Origin: an uncultured Candidatus Saccharibacteria bacterium | GTDB taxonomy: Bacteria > Patescibacteriota > Minisyncoccia > Spechtbacterales > HO2-43-30 | Length of the DNA stretch: 57,487 bases | Reading direction: 5' to 3' | Assembly (NCBI GenBank): GCA_964504205.1 | Contig: CAZDDE010000004.1 | Coordinates: 1 to 57,487 of the forward strand | Shown: in pieces, positions 3,332 to 42,180 of the stretch | How positions within the stretch are numbered: the stretch's first letter is position 1 | Layout: every line of letters begins with the position of its first letter | Translations under genes and position numbers: made by a program | Notes under the pieces: generated by a model | What the model saw: only the letters and a program-made list of their open reading frames with translations | What the model was told of the DNA's origin: nothing | The model's database searches: none

Positions 3332-5174
3332 TTTCGGGGGCTCTAGGAGGCAAAATACCTTCAAGCAGTTCGCCTTCTAGAGTTTCCTGGTCTAGAAGAA
3401 TTTTTACTATCGTTTTGATGCGTTCTTTTTCTGCGCTGATCGCCTCTTCAGCCTTCTTCTTCGCTCCAGAAATAAGGCGGAGCACTTCTTCATCTATGGC
3501 CTTGGCGGTATCTTCCGAGTAATCACGCCGCTCGTGGATTTCGCGTCCAAGAAAAACCAATTCTTCCCTTTGGCCGAACGTCCGCAGGCCAAGCTTGCTC
3601 ATTGCAAATCTTGTTATGATGTCGCGAGCAAGCTGTGTGGCTTTCGCGATGTCATCACTTGCGCCAGTCGTAACGTGTTCCTCGCCATACTGCACTGCCT
3701 CGGAAACTCTGCCTCCCAGCATTATTGCCAGATTATCGAGAAGATAAGCATTGTCCACCAGGCCGCGATCTTCCTCCGGCAGCATTCTAGTGTAGCCGCC
3801 CATACCACCCCGCTGCACGATAGATATTTTGTGCACAGGATCGGCGTACTTCATTTTCCATGCCACCACGGCATGGCCGGCTTCATGATAGGCAGCTATT
3901 TCTTTTTCTCTTTTGCTGACTTTTCTGCTCTTTCTCGCCGGACCGGCGACGACGCGATCAACCGTTTCTGCGAAATCCTTAAAAGTAATGACTTTTCTAT
4001 TCTGGCGCGTTGCCAGAATCGCTGCTTCATTGACAAGATTCGCGAGATCAGCTCCGCTAAAGGCATAAGTCAGTTGTGCTATTTTCTTTATATCAACGTC
4101 TGGAGCTACGGGCTTGCCGCGCATATGAACTTTCAGGATATCCGCTCTTCCTTCGGCATCAGGAAGATCCACAGTCACTCGTCTATCAAATCTTCCGGGA
4201 CGAAGTAATGCCGGGTCAAGAATATCCGGACGGTTTGTAGCGGCAAGGACAATAACATTGGTTCTTGTGTCAAAGCCGTCCATCTCAACCAAGATCTGGT
4301 TTAAAGTCTGCTCACGCTCATCATGCCCGCTGCCAAGGCCGGCTCCGCGATGTCTACCGACGGCATCTATCTCGTCAATAAATATAATACAAGGCGCGTT
4401 GCCCTTGGCTTGGTCAAAAAGATCGCGCACACGCGCCGCACCCATCCCAACGAACATCTCCACGAACGCACTGCCGCTTATATGGAAAAAAGGCACACCT
4501 GCCTCTCCGGCAATGGCCCGCGCAAGTAAAGTTTTCCCGGTACCCGGCGCTCCGACTAAAAGAACGCCTTTGGGGATTCGCGCGCCCATGGCAAGAAATC
4601 TTTCCGGTAATTTCAGAAACTCCACCACTTCCTGCACCTCCTGCTTCGCTTCCTCAACCCCGGCGACATCATTAAAGGTTACCGCGGGACGCTCTGCCAC
4701 GAGCTTAGCTTTACTCCTGATCATTGCGTTGACGCCACCCTGCGGCTGAACGCGGCTCATCATGAATAAAAAGAAACCGATAATAACTATTACTGGCAAC
4801 AAACCCAGCAAGACTTTCCAGAAATTAAACCCTTCGCCTGTTCCTGTTACTTTTATCTTTATGCCATCTTTGCCAGTTTTTATCCCGAGCTCTTCAAATA
4901 ACTCCAGGATGCTCGTGCCCGGTTCTTTGCGTGACTTAAAAACTTTTCCGACCGTACTAGTAATAGTTAGATTATCACCCTTAACCTCGATAGTTCTAAT
5001 CTGCCCGTCTTCAGCCATGGCTACAACTTGACTTATCTCAATTTCTTCTTTCCGTTCTGAAGAACTAGGCGCAAGAACAGTCAATAACCACACAACTCCC
5101 AGAATGATAGCGATTATCGCGATTCCCTTCCAAACGCTCATACGCCCTCGCGGCCCCTGCGGCTTATTATTCAT
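3321..5174 (-). CDS. ftsH: ATP-dependent zinc metalloprotease FtsH
   Basis: N-terminal TM segments, Walker A GAPGTGKT, the second region of homology, and the HEAGH zinc motif. Start set to ATG 5174, 6 nt after aaggag. Confidence 0.95.
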
Positions 5175-5915: not shown

Positions 5916-5916
5916 T

Positions 5917-6044
5917 TTCTAATTTCTAATTCCTAAGTTCTAATTTCTAATCAAGTCCCAAATCCCAATGTCTAATTTCTAAAATTTTAGAAATTAGACA
6001 TTTTGAATTAGAAATTTTATTAGAAATTAGTAATTAGAAATTAG
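5917..6044. repeat. intergenic heptamer-repeat array with embedded 30-nt perfect palindrome
   Basis: ttctaat-type units x5 (5917-5951), the perfect palindrome gtctaatttctaaaa/ttttagaaattagac (5970-5999), and complementary attagaa-type units up to 6044. Confidence 0.9.
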
Positions 6045-6048
6045 GCAT

Positions 6049-6564
6049 TTAATTACTCTGCTCTTGCTTTTTTTCTTCTACTAAAGGAGTTTCTTGTTCC
6101 TTGGCCTGTTCATCTTTCTTCTTGGACGTCTCGTCCTTCCCGGGTTCCCCAATCTCTCGATAGATCGTCCCCAAAACGCCGTTGATAAACCGCCCCGAGC
6201 TTTCACCGCCGAAATTTTTAGCAAGTTCAATCGCTTCGTTGATTGCCACCTTGGGCGGCACTTCATCGCGCTTGCCCCAGAGCAGCTCATAAATCCCCAC
6301 ACGCAGAACATTTCTATCGACTAAAGTAATTTGCGCCAACGGCCACTCCGGAGCGCACTTTACTATAATTTCATTTATTTTTTCCAAGTGCTCCATTACA
6401 CCATTGATCAATTGCCAGATAAAACCGGTGTCCTCAAGCCCAGGCCCAAATTCTTTGATATTTTTGTTGACAATGCTCTCCAATTTAGAATTATCCCCAC
6501 CCCAAAAATCCCACTCATAGAGCGATTGCATAGCGATTGACCTTGATAAATGACGAGAGGCCAT
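6049..6564 (-). CDS. nusB: transcription antitermination factor NusB
   Basis: [15 protein letters not shown]-terminus and a NusB-like helical core, with an acidic/lysine-rich C-terminal tail. Confidence 0.88.
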
Positions 6565-11748: not shown

Positions 11749-14700
11749 ATGGATAAAAAATTTACGCATTTACATGTCCACTCGCATTACTCATTACTTG
11801 ATGGCCTTTCAAAGATTCCTAATCTTTTAGATTATACAAAGGAACTCGGCATGGACGCCATCGCGCTCACCGACCATGGCGTGCAGTATGGCAATATAGA
11901 ATTTTATAAAGAAGCAAAAAAGCGGAGTATCAAACCGATTTTCGGACTAGAGACTTATGTCGCCAATCACACCCGTTTTGACCGCCGGCCTGGCGTAGAT
12001 GATGTGCGCTACCATTTAACGCTTCTTTGCGAAAACAAAACTGGTTATAAAAATCTCATTGCGCTTTCCACAAAAGCGCATTTAGAAGGTTTTTACTACA
12101 AACCAAGAGTTGATAAAGAACTTCTGCGCGAGTATCGCTCTGGACTAATTGCGCTCTCGGGATGTTTAAACGGAGAAATCGCCAAGGCCATTCTTGCAAA
12201 TAACAAAGGTGAAGCCGAGCGGCTTATCGGCGAATACGCTGATATCTTCGGCAAAGACAACTTTTATTTGGAGCTGCAGCATCATCCCCATATACCCGAA
12301 CAGATCAAAGTTAACAAAGCGCTTATTGAGATTGGCAAAAAGTTCTCTGCGCGACTAGTTGCGACGCAAGACTCGCATTATCTCCGCCCCGAAGATGCCG
12401 AAGCACAGGATATTCTACTCGCTATTCAGACGGGCGACAAGACCAGCGATGAAAAACGCGGTTTAACCATGAAAGACGAGGATTATTCACTTACTTCTCC
12501 CGAGCAAATGCATGAATTTTTCAAAGATTTGCCGGAAGCTATAACAAACACGCAGGAAATTGCCGAACGCTGTAATGTGGAACTGGAACTTGGAAAGAAC
12601 CAGCTGCCATACTTCCCTCTGCCCGAAAGTGATGACGAGAACTTGTATTTGAAAAAACTGTGCCAAGAGGGGATTGAAAAACGTTATGGAATCACGAATC
12701 CCTCCTTCGCCAAGGCTACGGCGGGCAGGCAAGAATTAAGAATTAAGGAACGACTCGACTACGAACTTTCTGTCATCAAGAAAACTGGCTTCGCTTCTTA
12801 TTTCCTCATCGTCGCGGATTTTGTGAACTGGGCAAAAAAAAATGGCGTGATCGTGGGCCCGGGGCGCGGTTCTGCCGCAGGATCAATCGTTTCGTATCTT
12901 CTAAACATTACCAATGTAGATCCTCTCAAATATGGTTTAATTTTTGAAAGATTTCTGCAGGCCGAGCGCAACGAACTGCCGGATATTGATATTGACTTTG
13001 CCGACACCCGCCGCGACGAAGTGCTCGAATATGTTGCGCAAAAATATGGCCGGGAAAATGTCGCGCAAATCATCACGTTCGGCACCATGGCCGCGCGCGT
13101 GTCTGTGCGCGATGTCGGCCGGGCCCTCGATTATCCCTACGAATTCTGCGACAAACTGGCCAAAGCGATTCCGATGATGATGAACCTTGAAGAGGCCCTG
13201 CGCGAAAGCCAAGAATTTGCCATGCTCTATCAGGGCGACAGGGACGCCCGCCGCATTGTTGACGCCGCGAAGAAACTTGAAGGTGTGGCGCGGCACGCTT
13301 CAACCCACGCTTGCGGCGTCGTGATTACCAAACAGCCGCTCGCAGAAACCGTCCCCTTGCAGCGTTCTTCGCAGAACGAAACCGTCATCACAACACAGTA
13401 TGAAATGCACGCGATTGAAGGATTGGGACTGTTAAAAATGGATTTTTTGGGCCTCAAAAATCTCACCATTATTGAAAATACGCGTGAGCAAATCAAAAAA
13501 AACTACGGCGAAGAAATTGATATCGAAAAAATTCCTTTAGATGATCCAAAAACTTTCGAACTTTTTCAGCAAGCCAATACGACCGGTGTGTTTCAGCTGG
13601 AAAGTGCGGGAATGAAACGCTACCTTAAAGAATTAAAGCCCACGCGTTTTGACGATATAGTCGCCATGGTCGCGCTGTATCGCCCGGGCCCGATGGAGTT
13701 TATACCGGATTTCATAGATAGAAAACACGGCCGCAAGGAAATCAATTATCTCCATCCGGAACTCGAGCCGATTCTTAAAGATACCTACGGCATTGCTGTC
13801 TTTCAAGAACAGGTTTTGCAGATAGCGCGCGATCTTGCCGGATTCACCTATTCCGAAGCTGATGTTTTGCGCAAGGCCATCGGAAAAAAAATCAAAGAGC
13901 TTCTTGACGAACAGAAAGAAAAATTTGTGCAAGGCATGATGAAAAACGGCATTCAGAAGGCCACCGCCGAACAGATCTTTCGTTTTGTGGAGCCGTTCGC
14001 CAGATACGGCTTCAATAAAGCGCACAGTGTTTGTTATGCAACTGTGGGTTTTGAGACGGCCTATCTCAAAACCCACTATCCCCGCGAATTTATGGCCGCG
14101 CTTTTAAACGCCGAACAAAAAAATATTGATCGCCTTTCTTTCCTCATAGATGAATGCCGCGCCATGGACATCAAAGTTCTTTCTCCGGATATAAATGAAA
14201 GTGATGAGAAATTCTCTGTCGCTAAAGACGGGATCCGTTTTGGTCTTGCGGCAGTAAAAAATGTCGGCGCGCATATTGTTGAAGAAATAATCAAAGAACG
14301 CAACGCCCACGGGCCATATTTAAGCATCGAAAATCTTCTGGACCGCGTACAGGATAAGAACCTCAACAAAAAATCTATAGAAAGCTTAATAAAATGCGGG
14401 TCTTTCGACAAACTTAGCGAAAGAAATAAGCTCCTCGCGAATATAGACGCTCTGCTCAAGTACTCACGCGACCAAAAAAGCATCGCCAACTCCAACCAAA
14501 TGAGTCTTTTTGCTGAACAGCCGATGTTTGTCGGCGCCCTGAAACTTGCCCAAGCCGCCGTAGCACCCCAAAATCTAATGCTCGCATGGGAAAAAGAACT
14601 GCTCGGATTCTACCTCTCCAGCCACCCCCTTGAAGAATACAAAGACAAACTGCGCCTTTTCCCCAAAATCAAAAACCTTGCCGCAAAAGACGCGGGCAAA

Positions 14701-14940
14701 ATGCTCAACCTCGGCGGTATTATCGCAAGTATTAAGAAGATCGTAACCAAAAGCGGCCAACCCATGCTCTTTATTGGCATCGAAGACCAAACCGCAAGAA
14801 TTGAGGGCCTTGTCTTCCCGTCCACCCTTGAAAAAAACCAAAACATCTTTGTGGAAGGAACTGCCGTGAGAATCAAAGGCCGTCTTTCCGACAAAGACGG
14901 CACGTTGAAGATACTTTGCGAGGAGGTGAAGGAACTTTGA
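11749..14940 (+). CDS. dnaE: DNA polymerase III alpha subunit
   Basis: PHP domain HLHVHSHYSLLDG, palm/fingers motifs and a C-terminal OB fold. 1063 aa. Confidence 0.96.
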   Translation: MDKKFTHLHVHSHYSLLDGLSKIPNLLDYTKELGMDAIALTDHGVQYGNIEFYKEAKKRSIKPIFGLETYVANHTRFDRRPGVDDVRYHLTLLCENKTGYKNLIALSTKAHLEGFYYKPRVDKELLREYRSGLIALSGCLNGEIAKAILANNKGEAERLIGEYADIFGKDNFYLELQHHPHIPEQIKVNKALIEIGKKFSARLVATQDSHYLRPEDAEAQDILLAIQTGDKTSDEKRGLTMKDEDYSLTSPEQMHEFFKDLPEAITNTQEIAERCNVELELGKNQLPYFPLPESDDENLYLKKLCQEGIEKRYGITNPSFAKATAGRQELRIKERLDYELSVIKKTGFASYFLIVADFVNWAKKNGVIVGPGRGSAAGSIVSYLLNITNVDPLKYGLIFERFLQAERNELPDIDIDFADTRRDEVLEYVAQKYGRENVAQIITFGTMAARVSVRDVGRALDYPYEFCDKLAKAIPMMMNLEEALRESQEFAMLYQGDRDARRIVDAAKKLEGVARHASTHACGVVITKQPLAETVPLQRSSQNETVITTQYEMHAIEGLGLLKMDFLGLKNLTIIENTREQIKKNYGEEIDIEKIPLDDPKTFELFQQANTTGVFQLESAGMKRYLKELKPTRFDDIVAMVALYRPGPMEFIPDFIDRKHGRKEINYLHPELEPILKDTYGIAVFQEQVLQIARDLAGFTYSEADVLRKAIGKKIKELLDEQKEKFVQGMMKNGIQKATAEQIFRFVEPFARYGFNKAHSVCYATVGFETAYLKTHYPREFMAALLNAEQKNIDRLSFLIDECRAMDIKVLSPDINESDEKFSVAKDGIRFGLAAVKNVGAHIVEEIIKERNAHGPYLSIENLLDRVQDKNLNKKSIESLIKCGSFDKLSERNKLLANIDALLKYSRDQKSIANSNQMSLFAEQPMFVGALKLAQAAVAPQNLMLAWEKELLGFYLSSHPLEEYKDKLRLFPKIKNLAAKDAGKMLNLGGIIASIKKIVTKSGQPMLFIGIEDQTARIEGLVFPSTLEKNQNIFVEGTAVRIKGRLSDKDGTLKILCEEVKEL
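12690..12751. repeat. in-frame insertion-like element in dnaE (26-nt core shared with pheT plus heptamers)
   Basis: Core cgccaaggctacggcgggcaggcaag at 12708-12733, flanked by gaatcac/gaatccc and by aagaatt x2. Confidence 0.8.
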
Positions 14941-17064: not shown

Positions 17065-20000
17065 ATGTCTATATCGCAAAACCTTAGCATCAAAATTTTT
17101 GTCTTTACCGCATCCATCGCCCTGCTCTTCGCCTTGGGCTTTTTAGTTACCCAAGCACAAGAAGCAGCCATAGGTGTGGGGGGCGGTAACGTAGACGCGC
17201 AGAGCGTTGCCCAAGCCGACGCCCAAGCAACTCAATTTGCCGCGCTTGATGAGAATATTAAACCGGAAGATTTGGGTGTTGGCGATCCCAATATTTTGCC
17301 AGACAGCCCTCTTTACGGCTTTAAGAACATGACGCGCGGTTTTCGCTCATTCATGACAAGAGATCCCGCCAAAAAGGCAGAACTCAAGATGGAATTCGCC
17401 AATGAAAAACTAATTGAAGCCCAAAAAATGTCCACGCAGGGTAAAAGCTCCCAAGCTGTAAAAAGCGCTGTTGAAAGCTATGAGAAAGAGGTCGGAAGGG
17501 TAAAAACCGAAGTAGGCAAACTCCAGCAAGCGCAAGTTAGCACCGCCAAAATTGAAAGAGTGGTTGAGAAAGCGCTTGACAGCCAATTCAAGCACAACAA
17601 GGCTCTTGGAAAGATGATGAAAGAGAACACCGATATTGCCACAGACATTGAACAAAAGAAGCAGGAAGTGATGAAAAATCTTACCGGCTCTGTTGCTAGT
17701 ATTGTGGATTCGGGAGTTTTCCAAAAAAAATTTGAGGAGGCGGTGCAAAATCAAAAAGGCAGCGCCTTTAAACACTTTAAGAATGTGGAAGTACTTGAGG
17801 AAGTAAAAGACTTTGTGCCGGAGCAGGCCAGGGGCGCCATTGAAAACGCCATCAAGCAATCCAGTAAATTGTTTCAGGAAGACTTCAGCGCGGCAACACA
17901 GGATCAGCGAAAAATCTTTAATAAATATGTAGAAAAAATGGGCGGCAATGAAGTGCGCCAGCTTGAAGCCTTTGACTCGCTCAACGCATTTGCTGATATC
18001 GAAAAAGAAATGCTTGGGGAAATGGAAAAAGCGCGCGAAAAAGCACGAGGGCGCATGGAAGAAAGAATGAACGGCTTCAAGGATGAAACGCAGCGCCAAG
18101 TCTTTATCGGTCACCTTGAAAACGGACGCATGGAAGACGCTCGCATTGTAAAGGAGCTTGAAAATAATCTGCCTTCTGATACCATCACGGGAATTCTTGG
18201 CATCAAGCATAAAATGGAAGAGAAAATGCGCTCAAGATTTGAAAACGCCCAATCTTCCGGGGATCTTAGCGGTTTCTTCGGCGAAATTGAGGACCGTCCG
18301 GATGCCCAAATGCTTTCGGTTATGAAAGAAATTGAAGCCATTATCCCGGCCGATAAGAAAGATTTCTTCCAGGAGATGAAAACCAAGGCCATGACTGAAA
18401 TGAGCAAAAATATTGAACAGGCCAGACAGTTCGGCCGCGCCGATGATCAGATGCGCCGCATGGCCAGCCTTGACCCGGAAAGTATGCAAGTCATGTCTGA
18501 ATTTCAGGATGAATTTGGCGGACAGTTTGGCTTCTTTGAAGACATGAAGCGCGAGCAGGCCAGTAAAATCTCGGACCGCTTTGCGCACTTCCAAGAATTT
18601 GCCGCAGAGGCGCAGTTTGGGCCGCAACAATCTGGCGGACCTGACTTTTCACCAAAGGGAGTTAGTGTTGGCGGAGGATTTCGTCCTGAAGATTTCTTCT
18701 CCAAGGCCGAGGAGTTCCGCTCGCGCATTGAATTTGATCCGAATGTAAAAAGCCAGATGCAGCAATTTTCGCCAGGTATTGATCAGCATTTCCAGAGCTT
18801 TGATACGCAAAGAAATCGTTTCTTTGAAGAATTTGTCCCTCCCTCCAGTCAAGAAAGCAGTGAACCTGGGCAGCCTTCTAGTAAGCCCGGCTTTGATATT
18901 GATGCAAAAATCGCCGAAGCCGAAGGATTTATCACGAAACTTACAGCATTAGTGCAGAATTCTCCCGAAGGCACACCCGGTCTTCAAGCGGCTCGCTCTT
19001 TGCTTTCAAACGCCCAAGACAAAGTCGCAAAGGCTAAAGCCGCAAAAGACAGCGGCAATACAGGCGAGGCGTTCGGGCAGGGCGTATCAGCAGTTGGCAA
19101 CGCCACAAATGGCATCCGTAAACTGGAAAGCGCCGGCTTTGAAACGGAGCGCAATCGCTACTTTGATGCGCGCGATGAAGTGCGTACGCAATTCCAAGAA
19201 GAAGGCGTTGCTCCAAGCCAAATCAACTTTGACGAATTTATAAAATTTGAACGGCCAAAATTTGAGGACTTCTCTCATCCTCAATTCTTTGGTCCTCCTC
19301 CCGGTTTTGGGAGCCAGCAACAAGGACAGCAGGGACAGAGCGGCCAAACCGGCACATCGCAGCAACAACAATCTGGTCAGCCCGGCACTGGCGGCCAGCA
19401 ACAGCAAAGCCAGTTTGGCGGCGGCTTCGGCTGCGCGCAAGTCTTAACTCCGGCAAGGGATATTAGGAGCGACACATGCCGCACGTTCAATAACGCCTGC
19501 CTCCCGCCGGGGTGGAAAGCCGATCCCTCTTGTGAGGGTCAGCAAGATAGCCGTTCTTTTCAAGAAATTGTAAAGCCGATGCCGGCGGAAGAGTCTATTG
19601 ACCACAGCCGCCTGCAGGACTTCACACAGCAATTCCAGCAGCAGCAACAATTTGAACCATTCCGCCAGCCATTCCCATCGCCAGCGCCTACTTCAGGCAC
19701 CGCACAGCCGACACAAAGCGCATTCCCGACTCATTCACCCTTCCCAACCTTTGGCCAGCCAACTCCGTTTCCCACGTATCAGCAGCCTTTTCCAACCTAC
19801 CAACAGCCCAGCCCAACTCCGTTCCCCACGTACAAAGAACCCTACCCCACTTATCAGCAGCCCACCCCTACTCCTTTCCCGACATATAAGGAGCCCTACC
19901 CAACCTACCAGCAGCCCAGTCCAACTCCATTCCCGACTTACACCCAGCCATCACCCACCCCAGCGCCGACCTATAAGGAGCCCTACCCAACCTACCAACA

Positions 20001-35521: not shown

Positions 35522-35592
35522 AGGCACTAGGCACTAGGGCGCTAGGCACTAGGAAATCCTAAAGCCTAGAGCCTAATAGCCTAGAGCCTAGA
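35522..35592. repeat. intergenic heptamer arrays (ggcacta-type and tagagcc-type)
   Basis: Read directly. The arrays are imperfectly complementary and overlap the last codons of secE. Confidence 0.8.
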
Positions 35593-36679: not shown

Positions 36680-36952
36680 TTAATAAGTCTTTGAAGTCCT
36701 ACGCTCAACATGAAATACATAAATAGTTTTTGTTCCGTCAATCAGCTCGTAGAAAATTCTGTAGGAACCCGCCCTCCGTCGCCAAACATTTTTCTCATTT
36801 TTCATTTTTTGGATATCGCCATAAAACGGATCAACTGACAGATCATCAAGTGTAGATAGAATACGCCCGCTATCTTTACGGGGTATTTTCTTAAGTTTCT
36901 TATAAATGTTCGAGTCAATTTGTAAAACCCAATTTTTGTTTAAGTTCGCCAA
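36680..36952 (-). CDS. RelE/ParE-family toxin
   Basis: C-terminal WRRRAGSYRIFYELIDGTKTIYVFHVERR pattern. Apparent TTG start overlapping the antitoxin end. Confidence 0.8.
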   Translation of the reverse strand: MANLNKNWVLQIDSNIYKKLKKIPRKDSGRILSTLDDLSVDPFYGDIQKMKNEKNVWRRRAGSYRIFYELIDGTKTIYVFHVERRTSKTY

Positions 36953-40104: not shown

Positions 40105-42180
40105 CTACCGCACTTCCCACAACTTTTCTTCTAATGCTTTCGTGATTTTTGACATTATTTCATCCACTTCTTGCGCGGTTAGAGTTCGTTCGTCAGATTG
40201 AAAGAGGAGATGAAAAGCTAAATTTTTCCTGCCTTCCGGCAGATTTTCGCCTTCGTATATATCAAATAGATCAGTATCGCGGAGCAAAGGGCCGCCGACG
40301 GTTTCAATAACATTTAATACTTCCTCCACCATCACTTCGCGCGGAACAAGTAAAGCAATATCGCGCACAACTTCAGGATATTTAGACGGCGTTTGATAAA
40401 TTTGCTCCTCCTCGGCGGCGGCTTGAATTTTTTCGAAATAAAGTTCGGCTTTATAGACTCTGCCCCCTATGCCCAATTTCGCGCAATCGTAAGGATGGCT
40501 TTCTCCCAAAATTCCCACCTTCTCATCGCCTAAAACAACGCACGCTCTTTTCCCCGGATGGAGCTGTCCAATTGTATTTTTTTCTTGATCCTCAAAAGAC
40601 TTTGTATCGTAATGAAAATCAGTTATTCCAAGTCTTCTCAGCAATTCATCGACATATCCTTTTAACAGATAAAATCCGCCAGACTCACTTTTGCCGGATT
40701 TATCATATATTGCCAAGGCGCATCTTTCTTCTTCCACGACCTCGCCATTAATTTCAGACATCCTAAAAATTTTACCGAATTCGAAAATTTGTACTGTCTC
40801 AAAAAACTTCTGGTTTGTTGAAATACTTTTCAACATGCCGTAAGTAAGGCTTCCGCGCAAGTACTTGAACTCCTCGCTTATGGGATTTAGTAATTCAATT
40901 AGCTGTGTAAATGACACGAGGGAATAATTATAAACTTCAGAAAAGCCGAAACCAACTAAAATTTGTCGCGCCATATTTCGCCAAAAGACTTGCTCGTTGC
41001 GACGCGGGGCGACAAGGATGCCTCGCGGCGGCTCGGCACTTATGTTTTCATATCCATAGACTCGGCCGATTTCTTCTACTAAATCTTCGGGAATATTGAT
41101 GTCAAGACGATAGGTCGGTATGGTAATCCGTAATACGTAATCCGTAATCCGTAACTTGTTCTCTTCTTCTACAGTAAAATTTAACCTTTCCAGAATTTGC
41201 TTCATCTCCCGCATTGATAAATATGTCCCAAGCAATTTATTGACATAATTAACATCAAGACTGATTTTCTTAGGCTTAATAAGTTCAGGATAAATATCTA
41301 TTTTTTGCACTATCTTCGCCTCGGGATTTGTTTCGCTAAGTATCTCAATTGTCCGCTCCAGAGCTTGCGGCGGCAAATTTGGGTCAAAGCCGTGCATATA
41401 GCGCACTGCGGCATCTGTTCTTATGCCTAGTTTTTGCGAAGTTCCGCGAATACGCGCCGGATCAAAAATCGCCGCCTGAAAAATAACTCTCTTTGTATTC
41501 TCATCAATCTGTGAATTGGCGCCGCCCTTGATTCCGGCAAGATCAATAATTCTTTCGCCATCTTCAATGACCACTGCGTCGTCACCCAAATCATGCGTCG
41601 CGCCATCAAGTGTTTCTAATTTTTCGCCCCCTTTAGACAATCTAGTGTTCATCTTTCTGTCTTTTATCTTATCCAAGTCAAAAGCATGTAGCGGCTGGCC
41701 CAACTCCCACATCACATAATTCGTAATGTCCACGACATTGTTAATCGTTTTCTGCTCCATCGCCGCAAGTCTTTCTTTGATCCAGTCAGGCGATTCAGTA
41801 ATTTTTACACCCTCCATAACATAGGCGCTATATCGAGGACATAAAGATTCATCCTGAATTGTTACAGAAAGTAATTTTAAGTTTTGAGTTTTGAGTTTTG
41901 AGTTTTGTTTGGAACTTGCCTGCCCGCCGAAGCCTTGGCGCAGGCGGGTTGGTTGTAATTTGTAATTTAGCAATGCCGCGCATTCTCTAGCCACCCCCAA
42001 ATGACTTAAACAGTCGCTTGCCCTGTTGGGGAGTATATCAATATCCAAAATGTAATCGTCGCCTCTCTTGATAACTTCTTCAACTTCAAAACTGTGCATC
42101 GTTAAAAGCTCGGCCAACTCCTCTGGCTTAGGAAATTCTTTGTCGAAAAACGATTGTAGCCAATTGTAGGAAAATTTCAT
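40105..42180 (-). CDS. pheT: phenylalanyl-tRNA synthetase beta subunit (no N-terminal OB/tRNA-binding domain)
   Basis: MKFSYNWL start, B3/4 domain NNVVDITNYVMWELGQPLHAFD, B5 and a C-terminal FDX-ACB domain. Confidence 0.94.
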   Translation of the reverse strand: MKFSYNWLQSFFDKEFPKPEELAELLTMHSFEVEEVIKRGDDYILDIDILPNRASDCLSHLGVARECAALLNYKLQPTRLRQGFGGQASSKQNSKLKTQNLKLLSVTIQDESLCPRYSAYVMEGVKITESPDWIKERLAAMEQKTINNVVDITNYVMWELGQPLHAFDLDKIKDRKMNTRLSKGGEKLETLDGATHDLGDDAVVIEDGERIIDLAGIKGGANSQIDENTKRVIFQAAIFDPARIRGTSQKLGIRTDAAVRYMHGFDPNLPPQALERTIEILSETNPEAKIVQKIDIYPELIKPKKISLDVNYVNKLLGTYLSMREMKQILERLNFTVEEENKLRITDYVLRITIPTYRLDINIPEDLVEEIGRVYGYENISAEPPRGILVAPRRNEQVFWRNMARQILVGFGFSEVYNYSLVSFTQLIELLNPISEEFKYLRGSLTYGMLKSISTNQKFFETVQIFEFGKIFRMSEINGEVVEEERCALAIYDKSGKSESGGFYLLKGYVDELLRRLGITDFHYDTKSFEDQEKNTIGQLHPGKRACVVLGDEKVGILGESHPYDCAKLGIGGRVYKAELYFEKIQAAAEEEQIYQTPSKYPEVVRDIALLVPREVMVEEVLNVIETVGGPLLRDTDLFDIYEGENLPEGRKNLAFHLLFQSDERTLTAQEVDEIMSKITKALEEKLWEVR
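41123..41157. repeat. tandem heptamer (gtaatcc) x4.7 inside pheT
   Basis: Read directly. Encodes LRITDYVLRITI. Confidence 0.9.
41874..41967. repeat. in-frame insertion-like element in pheT (heptamers + 26-nt core shared with dnaE + heptamers)
   Basis: gttttga x4 (41881-41908), core cttgcctgcccgccgaagccttggcg (41915-41940), tgtaatt x2 (41954-41967). Confidence 0.85.

Follow-up and report, generated by a model that had tools for sequence, protein, structure and literature searches.

A 30-nt hairpin module within dnaE and pheT of an uncultured Saccharibacteria bacterium and its probable affinity with REP-, RPE- and SDR-like mini-repeats

Three groups of small bacterial repeats are the described systems nearest to the element considered here. 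REPs (repetitive extragenic palindromes) that carry a GTAG or CGTC tag have intragenic copies in Rickettsia conorii dnaE, in tRNA-synthetase genes and in many genes of Opitutus terrae (Di Nocera et al., PMC3733652). RPEs (Rickettsia palindromic elements), as that paper cites them, are palindromic repeats lying in frame within essential protein genes, where the extra peptide is tolerated (PMC3733652). SDRs (small dispersed repeats), in the account given by papers that cite them, are very small mobile repeats of 21-27 nt that insert precisely and have been reported from Nostocaceae alone (PMC5861425). A further repeat type, the locus-specific heptanucleotide array (short tandemly repeated repetitive sequence, STRR), is found in genic and intergenic DNA as the commonest class of long simple sequence repeats in bacteria and is ascribed to polymerase slippage rather than tied to hairpin modules (PMC4679880, PMC4692102). 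The element in question is a GC-rich hairpin module of 30 nt that occurs twice, once within dnaE and once within pheT, in a 57,487-nt stretch of DNA (hereafter the window; contig CAZDDE010000004.1, assembly GCA_964504205.1) from an uncultured Candidatus Saccharibacteria bacterium.

The module is probably a very small, non-coding, non-autonomous selfish hairpin element of the REP/RPE/SDR kind. An original prediction, made from the window alone, had proposed a small selfish or insertional DNA element tolerated inside open reading frames (ORFs), and this interpretation is supported in its essentials by hundreds of further copies, by lineage-specific indels and by a precise insertion in SecA. Its comparison with RPEs is apt in concept, both being in-frame insertions into essential genes.

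The 30-nt unit and its fold

The dnaE gene (11749..14940, + strand; DNA polymerase III alpha, 1063 aa) contains the module CCCTCCTTCGCCAAGGCTACGGCGGGCAGG at 12700..12729 (+), followed by a conserved C at 12730, and translates it as PSFAKATAGR. The pheT gene (40105..42180, - strand; PheRS beta, 691 aa) contains a copy at 41919..41948 (-), whose sense strand is CCCGCCTGCGCCAAGGCTTCGGCGGGCAGG and whose conserved next C is at 41918. This copy is read as (T)RLRQGFGGQA, and the PheT product across the insert reads ...QPTRLRQGFGGQASSK.... Both host frames are intact across the insert, and the two translations (...PSFAKATAGRQ... in DnaE versus ...RLRQGFGGQAS... in PheT) arise from different frames, as the ORFs had led the original prediction to state. 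A degenerate pattern, CGCCAAGGCTWCGGCGGGCAGGCAAG, matches with 0 mismatches at 12708-12733 (+) and at 41915-41940 (-), and these two segments are identical to each other at 25/26 positions, the figure originally given. No third match is present within the window at up to 3 mismatches, 100 dinucleotide-preserving shuffles of the window yielded 0 matches, with 0 expected by chance, and a GC-island scan disclosed no other clear sister element in the window. The weaker similarity noticed beyond the core is also real, since the gene-sense alignment of the two copies extends to 31/34 identical positions. The 26-nt core is shared as described, but the unit proper is 30 nt long (31 conserved positions) and not 26.

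The family consensus is CCCGCCTTCGCCAAGGCTWCGGCGGGCAGG, which spans 30 nt (10 codons), is usually followed by C and contains 0 stop codons in its six frames. The ends of the unit are sharp, with an information content of ~0 directly outside it. In an unbiased scan, the base after ...CAGG is C in 81% of copies and the base that follows is near background. Within the unit, positions 4, 8 and 19 are free. In a 6-bp GC stem, positions 1-6 pair with 21-26; the 14-nt loop that the stem encloses and the 3' tail CAGG(C) beyond it are both conserved.

Folding of the element, suggested as a check together with the original prediction, gives this 6-bp stem, and covariation supports it. Among 89 copies chosen solely for a base other than C at position 23, position 4 is the Watson-Crick partner of the mutated base in 73 (T:A 46, A:T 24, C:G 3), and another 7 have G.T. 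A set of 33 secondary copies outside all search patterns, for which the reversed-sequence control returned 1 match, likewise has compensatory pairs at 1:26, 4:23 and 5:22. The plus-strand RNA is predicted to adopt the 1-6:21-26 register at 86% of the ensemble, with -14.2 kcal/mol; the minus strand favours another register, which the compensated variants would break. The sequence conservation of the 14-nt loop and the 3' tail suggests that they may be recognized by a specific factor.

The 4:23 pair is asymmetric throughout the family: it is mismatched in about 30% of the copies that retain C23 and complementary in 82% of those in which position 23 is changed, and among the 33 unbiased secondary copies it is mismatched in 2. 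Three other descriptions of the unit were rejected. A stem that pairs positions 1-6 with 25-30, thermodynamically favoured on the minus strand, is incompatible with the covariation. Pairing of the hypervariable loop positions 8 and 19 shows no significant association. Finally, a 32-nt element with a 5-nt target duplication and a CA excision footprint disagrees with the filled and empty SecA sites discussed below, which differ by a clean 30 nt; the 'A' of the CA was imposed by the search patterns.

Insertion sites and distribution

In the SecA of a Saccharibacteria metagenome-assembled genome (MAG; locus L019) the module lies just upstream of the VDEVDSILIDE motif. Compared with 120 homologs, the insert comprises exactly 10 residues (...QAKG[PASAKASAGR]HNFAIVDEVD...). 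At the DNA level the filled site, ...aaaggc[CCCGCCTCCGCCAAGGCTTCGGCGGGCAGG]cataac..., is to be set against the empty ortholog, ...aagggc^cataat..., and the pair defines a precise 30-nt insertion without target duplication that leaves a 1-nt (C) ambiguity. A flank repeat of any kind accompanies only about 10% of copies. Ortholog alignments reveal lineage-specific indels at both sites: the window PheT exceeds its closest relatives (66-72% identical) by about 11 residues there, and in the window DnaE a loop that counts 4-5 residues in most of 120 homologs is about 10-11 residues longer. The DnaE loop was mapped on E. coli Pol III alpha and the PheT linker on solved bacterial PheRS-beta chains; both are variable surface linkers, which agrees with the placement first proposed. 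Near-isogenic empty sites were not encountered in the searched collections, where no relative exceeds 72% (pheT), 64% (dnaE) or 59% (ligA of locus L021) identity.

Two observations concern the surroundings of individual copies. The window PheT (691 aa) lacks about 115 residues of the solved PheRS-beta chains, the alignment jumping from chain residue ~41 to ~156. The missing stretch is presumably the B2 / tRNA-binding OB domain of PheRS-beta, and the pheT module sits in the linker that follows it. In two Verrucomicrobiae species (L028 and L062), the module constitutes a rearrangement or indel boundary: homology is 94% on its right side, but ends some 10 nt away on the left, where identity is 36%.

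Genomes, one per species, were scanned with the exact pattern GCCAAGGCTNCGGCGGGCAGGCA, which occurs in at least 120 copies; a stem-variant scan of genomes added 89 further copies and a metagenome scan gave at least 120. Exact-pattern scans together returned more than 300 copies from uncultured genomes and metagenomes, and the search for further copies proposed with the original prediction has therefore been productive. All genome matches derive from MAGs, nanopore assemblies among them, and none from an isolate; some MAGs carry several copies. The GC content of the loci ranges from 0.28 to 0.72. According to the submitters' labels, the carriers cover about 19 phyla: CPR (Candidate Phyla Radiation)/Patescibacteria (many classes), Verrucomicrobiota, Acidobacteriota, Planctomycetota, Omnitrophota, Chloroflexota, Pseudomonadota, Desulfobacterota, Myxococcota, Elusimicrobiota, Desantisbacteria, Saganbacteria, Marinimicrobia, Bacteroidota, Ignavibacteria, Chlamydiota, Cyanobacteriota (only two matches), Clostridia and one Woesearchaeota bin. 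The original prediction knew of no equivalent in CPR bacteria. Literature searches by sequence string, peptide signatures and keywords likewise found no description of this 30-mer or its peptides, but the family is not specific to CPR, and intragenic REPs of other families are documented in dnaE and tRNA-synthetase genes (PMC3733652).

Two possible sources were examined and rejected. Derivation from a universal RNA or gene was discarded, as the module has no match in 5,426 complete E. coli genomes and no Rfam family matches it. A phage or plasmid vector was dismissed because plasmids and phages contain chance-level matches only and 2.9 million viral contigs contain 1.

It is extremely improbable that the module is a sequencing or assembly contaminant, or a chance likeness of two GC-rich coding segments. 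The restriction of all matches to MAGs and metagenomes would suit such an artefact. Zero matches are expected by chance, however, and the copies come from many independent projects that employed short- and long-read technologies and lie in frame within intact essential genes. The compensatory stem variants, the orthologous sites in related species and the wide range of locus GC are likewise incompatible with a contaminant. The related concern that the window might be a chimeric assembly is dispelled by the same in-frame placement and compensatory variants, and by the recovery of copies from independent Illumina and nanopore assemblies.

Copies occupy both ORFs and intergenic DNA: open frames of 600 nt or more contain 68% of them, as against 78% of random positions (66% versus 78% in a replicate). 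Copies are read in each of the three sense frames and in the antisense frames; conservation is therefore at the nucleotide level and not at the protein level, as first argued from the two window copies. Copies in ORFs run preferentially with the coding strand (63/81 and 22/30, p = 0.016). The host genes recognized by motif include the unrelated housekeeping genes of SecA, CysRS, Leu/IleRS, ProRS, ArgRS, LigA, MutS and MurC, and those of a P-type ATPase and FtsW. A neighbouring driver gene was considered and rejected, as clustering of the ORFs near copies gave housekeeping families only. Most copies are single, and the rare multiples are direct tandems spaced one heptamer (7 nt) apart. At L032/L119, L066/L113 and L038, in MAGs labelled Gammaproteobacteria or Rickettsiales, a module variant beginning CCAGCC... 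lies at the apex of a dispersed palindrome of greater length, ...ccccgatc[module]gggtcggggatgac..., and forms a repeat within a repeat.

Heptamer arrays and hot-spot loops

Both window copies are embedded in arrays of 7-nt units. In dnaE, the units atggaat cacgaat (12686..12699, +) precede the module and the units caagaat taagaat taaggaa (12730..12750, +) follow it; Tandem Repeats Finder (TRF) reports AAGAATT x2.4 at 12731-12747. Removal of the 30 nt brings the upstream and downstream units into 7-nt phase (atggaat cacgaat/caagaat taagaat taaggaa). In pheT, taken in gene sense, the upstream units are taaatta caaatta caaccaa (41949..41969, -; TRF 41953-41968, TTGTAAT x2.3) and the downstream array is caagttc caaacaa aactcaa x3-4 (41875..41918, -; TRF 41875-41907, TTTTGAG x4.7, 96% matches), and the same deletion again restores the phase (taaatta caaatta caaccaa/caagttc caaacaa aactcaa...). 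The heptamers said to bracket both copies are thus confirmed as arrays, but they do not belong to the element; the 30-nt unit sits in phase inside the array.

This coupling extends beyond the window. In the flanks of copies, lag 7 is the sole enriched period, and among left-to-right flank offsets 37 (30+7) alone is enriched. The fetched loci contain 72 heptamer arrays versus 4-24 arrays for other periods, which makes heptamers their commonest tandem-repeat class, and heptamer arrays are 11-fold enriched within 12 nt of a copy. About 9-15% of copies, including the two in the window, are in phase inside locus-specific heptamer arrays. Because the units are locus-specific, they are not part of the element; they are the hot-spot or by-product context of the module. 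The arrays may attract modules, for example as slipped, single-stranded DNA, or may arise from them, for example by stalling and slippage or by duplication followed by loss of the hairpin.

The loops that carry the module also receive other insertions. Among Parcubacteria, the PheT linker contains a diverged module copy in some, and in others heptamers only, a CTACCGGTAGGCAGGCG palindrome or a double-hairpin module of 30 nt. One LigA loop comprises 50 residues in 44 of 80 Patescibacteria orthologs and is expanded in 34, either by heptamer-only arrays of differing units or by hairpin modules, including one that contributes exactly +10 residues. Comparison of the SecA homologs P0241 and P0247 reveals a different 10-residue insert, PTSPAGGQGG, at the exact site of the 30-mer in L019. 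A third SecA homolog, P0250, has a 16-residue tandem duplication (DYLRDNMVYRLEDMVH/Q) directly upstream of this hot spot.

The double-hairpin modules form a second family of exactly 30 nt, built of two 15-nt hairpins (e.g. TCCGCCGAAGGCGGA TCCGCCTCTGGCGGA), which is present in other Patescibacteria in the PheT linker (L122, L126, L128) and the LigA loop (L391) and encodes ...SAEGGSASGGK... or ...QGGPASGW.... Other GC-rich inserts, ending ...GGGCAGGC(A/G) (e.g. CCCTTCGACTTCGCTCAGGGCAGGCA), abut heptamer arrays at L076 (~5070-5100), L194 (~1950-1975), L127 and L012. The common 3' tail of these inserts suggests a superfamily with a CAGGC / GCCTG tag.

The insertion pattern bears on a quite unlikely mechanism, templated repair or oligonucleotide capture, in which a discrete hairpin nucleic acid of 30-31 nt, made from a dedicated template (a retron-like product, or that of another reverse transcriptase or nuclease), would be ligated or copied into nicks, gaps or slipped structures, with heptamer duplications as by-products of repair. 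Precise insertion with 1-nt microhomology and no target duplication would fit such capture, as would the constant length and ends, the heptamer arrays, prone to slippage, with which copies associate, the heptamer-only expansions found at their hot spots, and the lack of a transposase near copies. No candidate template locus or enzyme was identified, however, and no E. coli RNA or gene contains the element as a fragment. Moreover, the lineage sub-variants with compensated stems fit a copy-from-copy spread equally well as, or better than, a single master template.

Period-7 arrays dominate the tandem repeats of the window as a whole, with at least 10 arrays of different units, among them those at 2204-2233, 5916-5951, 5987-6055, 26186-26216, 35522-35592, 36791-36809 and 41123-41154. 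Two of them, between 5916 and 6055, have complementary units (TTTCTAA / TTAGAAA) and stand opposite each other in DNA that appears to be non-coding. At 2204-2253, within a TrmD-like ORF (1742-2464, -), a (TTTGACT)x4.3 array abuts a 20-nt GC hairpin, CCGCAGTGCCTGCACTGCGG, and encodes ...SAVQALRKVKSQKSKVKS...; this site looks like a hairpin-plus-heptamer composite of a different family. At 26186-26237, within a GatB-like ORF (25586-27046, -), a TTTAGAA-like x4.4 array adjoins the hairpin CCCCCGATCTTAATCGGGGGG, which may be coincidental, as it overlaps the conserved PEPDIPP motif in a region of normal length by eye. A second heptamer array in pheT (41123-41154; GTAATCC x4.6, 92% matches) is far from the module and encodes a repeated peptide, LRITDYVLRIT. 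The most GC-rich part of the window, 19755-20210, contains a complex long-period tandem repeat (periods 33/54/66/87/108, 66-84% matches).

Proposed spread and relation to known mini-repeats

As a selfish hairpin element, the module would be placed precisely at new sites without target duplication, usually just 5' of a C. Insertion into the surface loops of essential proteins such as PheRS-beta and DNA Pol III alpha would add 10 residues, which would be tolerated because the module is frame-neutral and free of stops; the same tolerance would account for the reading of one DNA sequence in different frames. Propagation may depend on a trans-acting factor that recognizes the hairpin together with the loop and tail. 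By analogy to REP/RAYT and IS200/IS605, this factor is probably a single-strand-specific nuclease or transposase. Its preferred target could be slippage-prone, transiently single-stranded DNA such as heptamer arrays. The sense-strand bias might result from selection on the encoded peptide or on the mRNA, or from transcription-coupled exposure of one strand.

A broader reading is tentative and, taken as a whole, rather doubtful. It holds that the module represents a pan-bacterial family, distributed over the labelled phyla, of codon-neutral 30-nt mobile hairpins without a linked transposase, that these are moved by an unrecognized but widespread hairpin-specific activity, and that, with sister modules that have the ...GGCAGGC tail or a length of 30 nt in common with them, they are mechanistically coupled to the birth of heptanucleotide repeats. 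If true, such a family would account in part for the bacterial excess of 7-nt microsatellites that has long been noted, and hairpin modules would repeatedly give rise to 10-residue loop insertions in essential proteins.

Several points weigh against a mobile selfish element. Its mobility is inferred from comparative data only. No recurrent non-housekeeping gene was found within 2 kb of copies in 209 loci, and phmmer searches of the window and the first 120 loci detected no RAYT/Y1 transposase-like ORF. A parasite that has no known vector is not easily reconciled with a 30-mer that is identical across phyla. The stability of the hairpin is unexceptional relative to shuffles, with z of about -1.4 for RNA and about 0 for DNA, and the case for structure therefore rests on covariation. 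The taxon labels of the MAGs are those of their submitters and some may be wrong. At L340-L418, several MAGs labelled 'uncultured Gammaproteobacteria' or 'Bdellovibrionales' carry a LigA that is 41-50% identical to Patescibacteria LigA and was retrieved among Patescibacteria orthologs; therefore, some of the labels behind the phylum count may be unreliable. Lastly, in three Udaeobacter species the orthologous copy, ascertained by exact match, keeps all 22 pattern positions, and the 200-nt coding flanks are 61-88% identical. Such conservation above the coding flanks could mean function rather than pure selfishness.

Function would be expected if the hairpin were a host cis-element that a widely conserved protein binds or reads as an RNA signal, for example in mRNA stability or localization, replication or repair, with insertions that became domesticated and are kept by selection. 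Besides the Udaeobacter copies, a loop and tail more conserved than a simple structural hairpin requires are consistent with this explanation, as are the sense-strand bias, the covarying fold taken by the plus-strand RNA and the repeated use of translation and replication genes as hosts. In opposition to these features, positions in host genes are not conserved across lineages and close relatives lack the insert; all frames, both orientations and intergenic DNA are occupied in near-random proportions; unrelated hairpin modules occupy the same loops; and there is no Rfam family. A host-functional cis-element is thus considered unlikely, and a selfish hairpin element is retained as the probable identity of the module.

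If this identity is correct, the module is among the smallest mobile-looking DNA modules known. With exactly 10 codons and no stops it can colonize the essential genes of streamlined genomes, and its near-identity across very distant phyla and the absence of a visible transposase are unusual traits. It would provide a handle on two open problems, namely how REP/SDR-type mini-repeats move without a dedicated enzyme and why heptanucleotide repeats are common in bacteria. The peptide signatures RLRQGFGGQA, PAFAKASAGR and PPSPRLRRAG, together with antisense forms, are present in many predicted metagenome proteins. Peptides of this kind can lead to errors in alignments, in the domain boundaries and phylogenies drawn from proteins and in short-k-mer assembly graphs; recognition of the module therefore improves the annotation of CPR and other uncultured lineages.

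Tagged REPs and REPINs (PMC3733652, PMC3116915) resemble the module in being multicopy stem-loops of 20-40 nt with an unpaired, conserved end tag. Tagged REPs also form compensatory stem sub-families, on stems of 6-9 bp compared with 6 bp in the module, and some of their copies lie inside replication/repair and tRNA-synthetase genes. In contrast, the REP tag is GTAG or CGTC and that of the module is CAGG(C), or GCCTG on the other strand; GTAG occurs in the module only inside the loop, on the minus strand of the W=A variant. The module loop, unlike that of REPs, is long and highly conserved. REPs are mainly extragenic and often arranged as inverted dimers, whereas the module is mostly single with near-random ORF occupancy. 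REPINs are mobilized by RAYT transposases, whereas no RAYT was found near the 200+ module copies. The module peptide signatures are absent from the table of intragenic REPs in PMC3733652. Membership in the RAYT/REP system was rejected on account of the tag, the lack of RAYT in the loci and the absence of the peptides from this table.

The module also differs from a miniature inverted-repeat transposable element (MITE), which has terminal inverted repeats, a target-site duplication and a length of 70-300 bp: the module has no such duplication, its inverted repeat is not terminal at the 3' end, and it measures 30 nt. Nor does it resemble CRISPR repeats, which form regular arrays with unique spacers of about 30-40 nt, as its copies are single or, rarely, in tandems 7 nt apart. 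RPEs are about 100-150 bp long and are not known outside Rickettsia and relatives. The module shares their in-frame insertion into ORFs, but at 30 nt and with about 19 labelled phyla it falls outside their length and lineage. The heptamer excess described for bacteria is seen likewise in the window and in the fetched loci, where, in addition, the arrays share the hot spots of the module.

SDR4, SDR5 and SDR6 of Nostoc and relatives are, like the module, tiny, hairpin-bearing, precisely inserted and non-coding. Precise insertion without target duplication is common to both, as the SecA pair and the lack of flank repeats in about 90% of module copies attest. Elhai and co-workers are said to have reported in 2008 that SDRs are often embedded in tandem heptameric repeats, as is the module here. 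In contrast to SDRs, which measure 21-27 nt and have been reported only from Nostocaceae, the module is 30 nt long, slightly above that range, GC-rich and distributed across about 19 phyla as labelled. By this analogy, the cyanobacterial SDR class appears to be its closest counterpart. The module is classed with the known REP/RPE/SDR-like mini-repeats, among which it is notable for being free of stops and exactly 10 codons long, for being nearly identical in about 19 labelled phyla, for lacking a linked transposase and for its coupling to heptamers.

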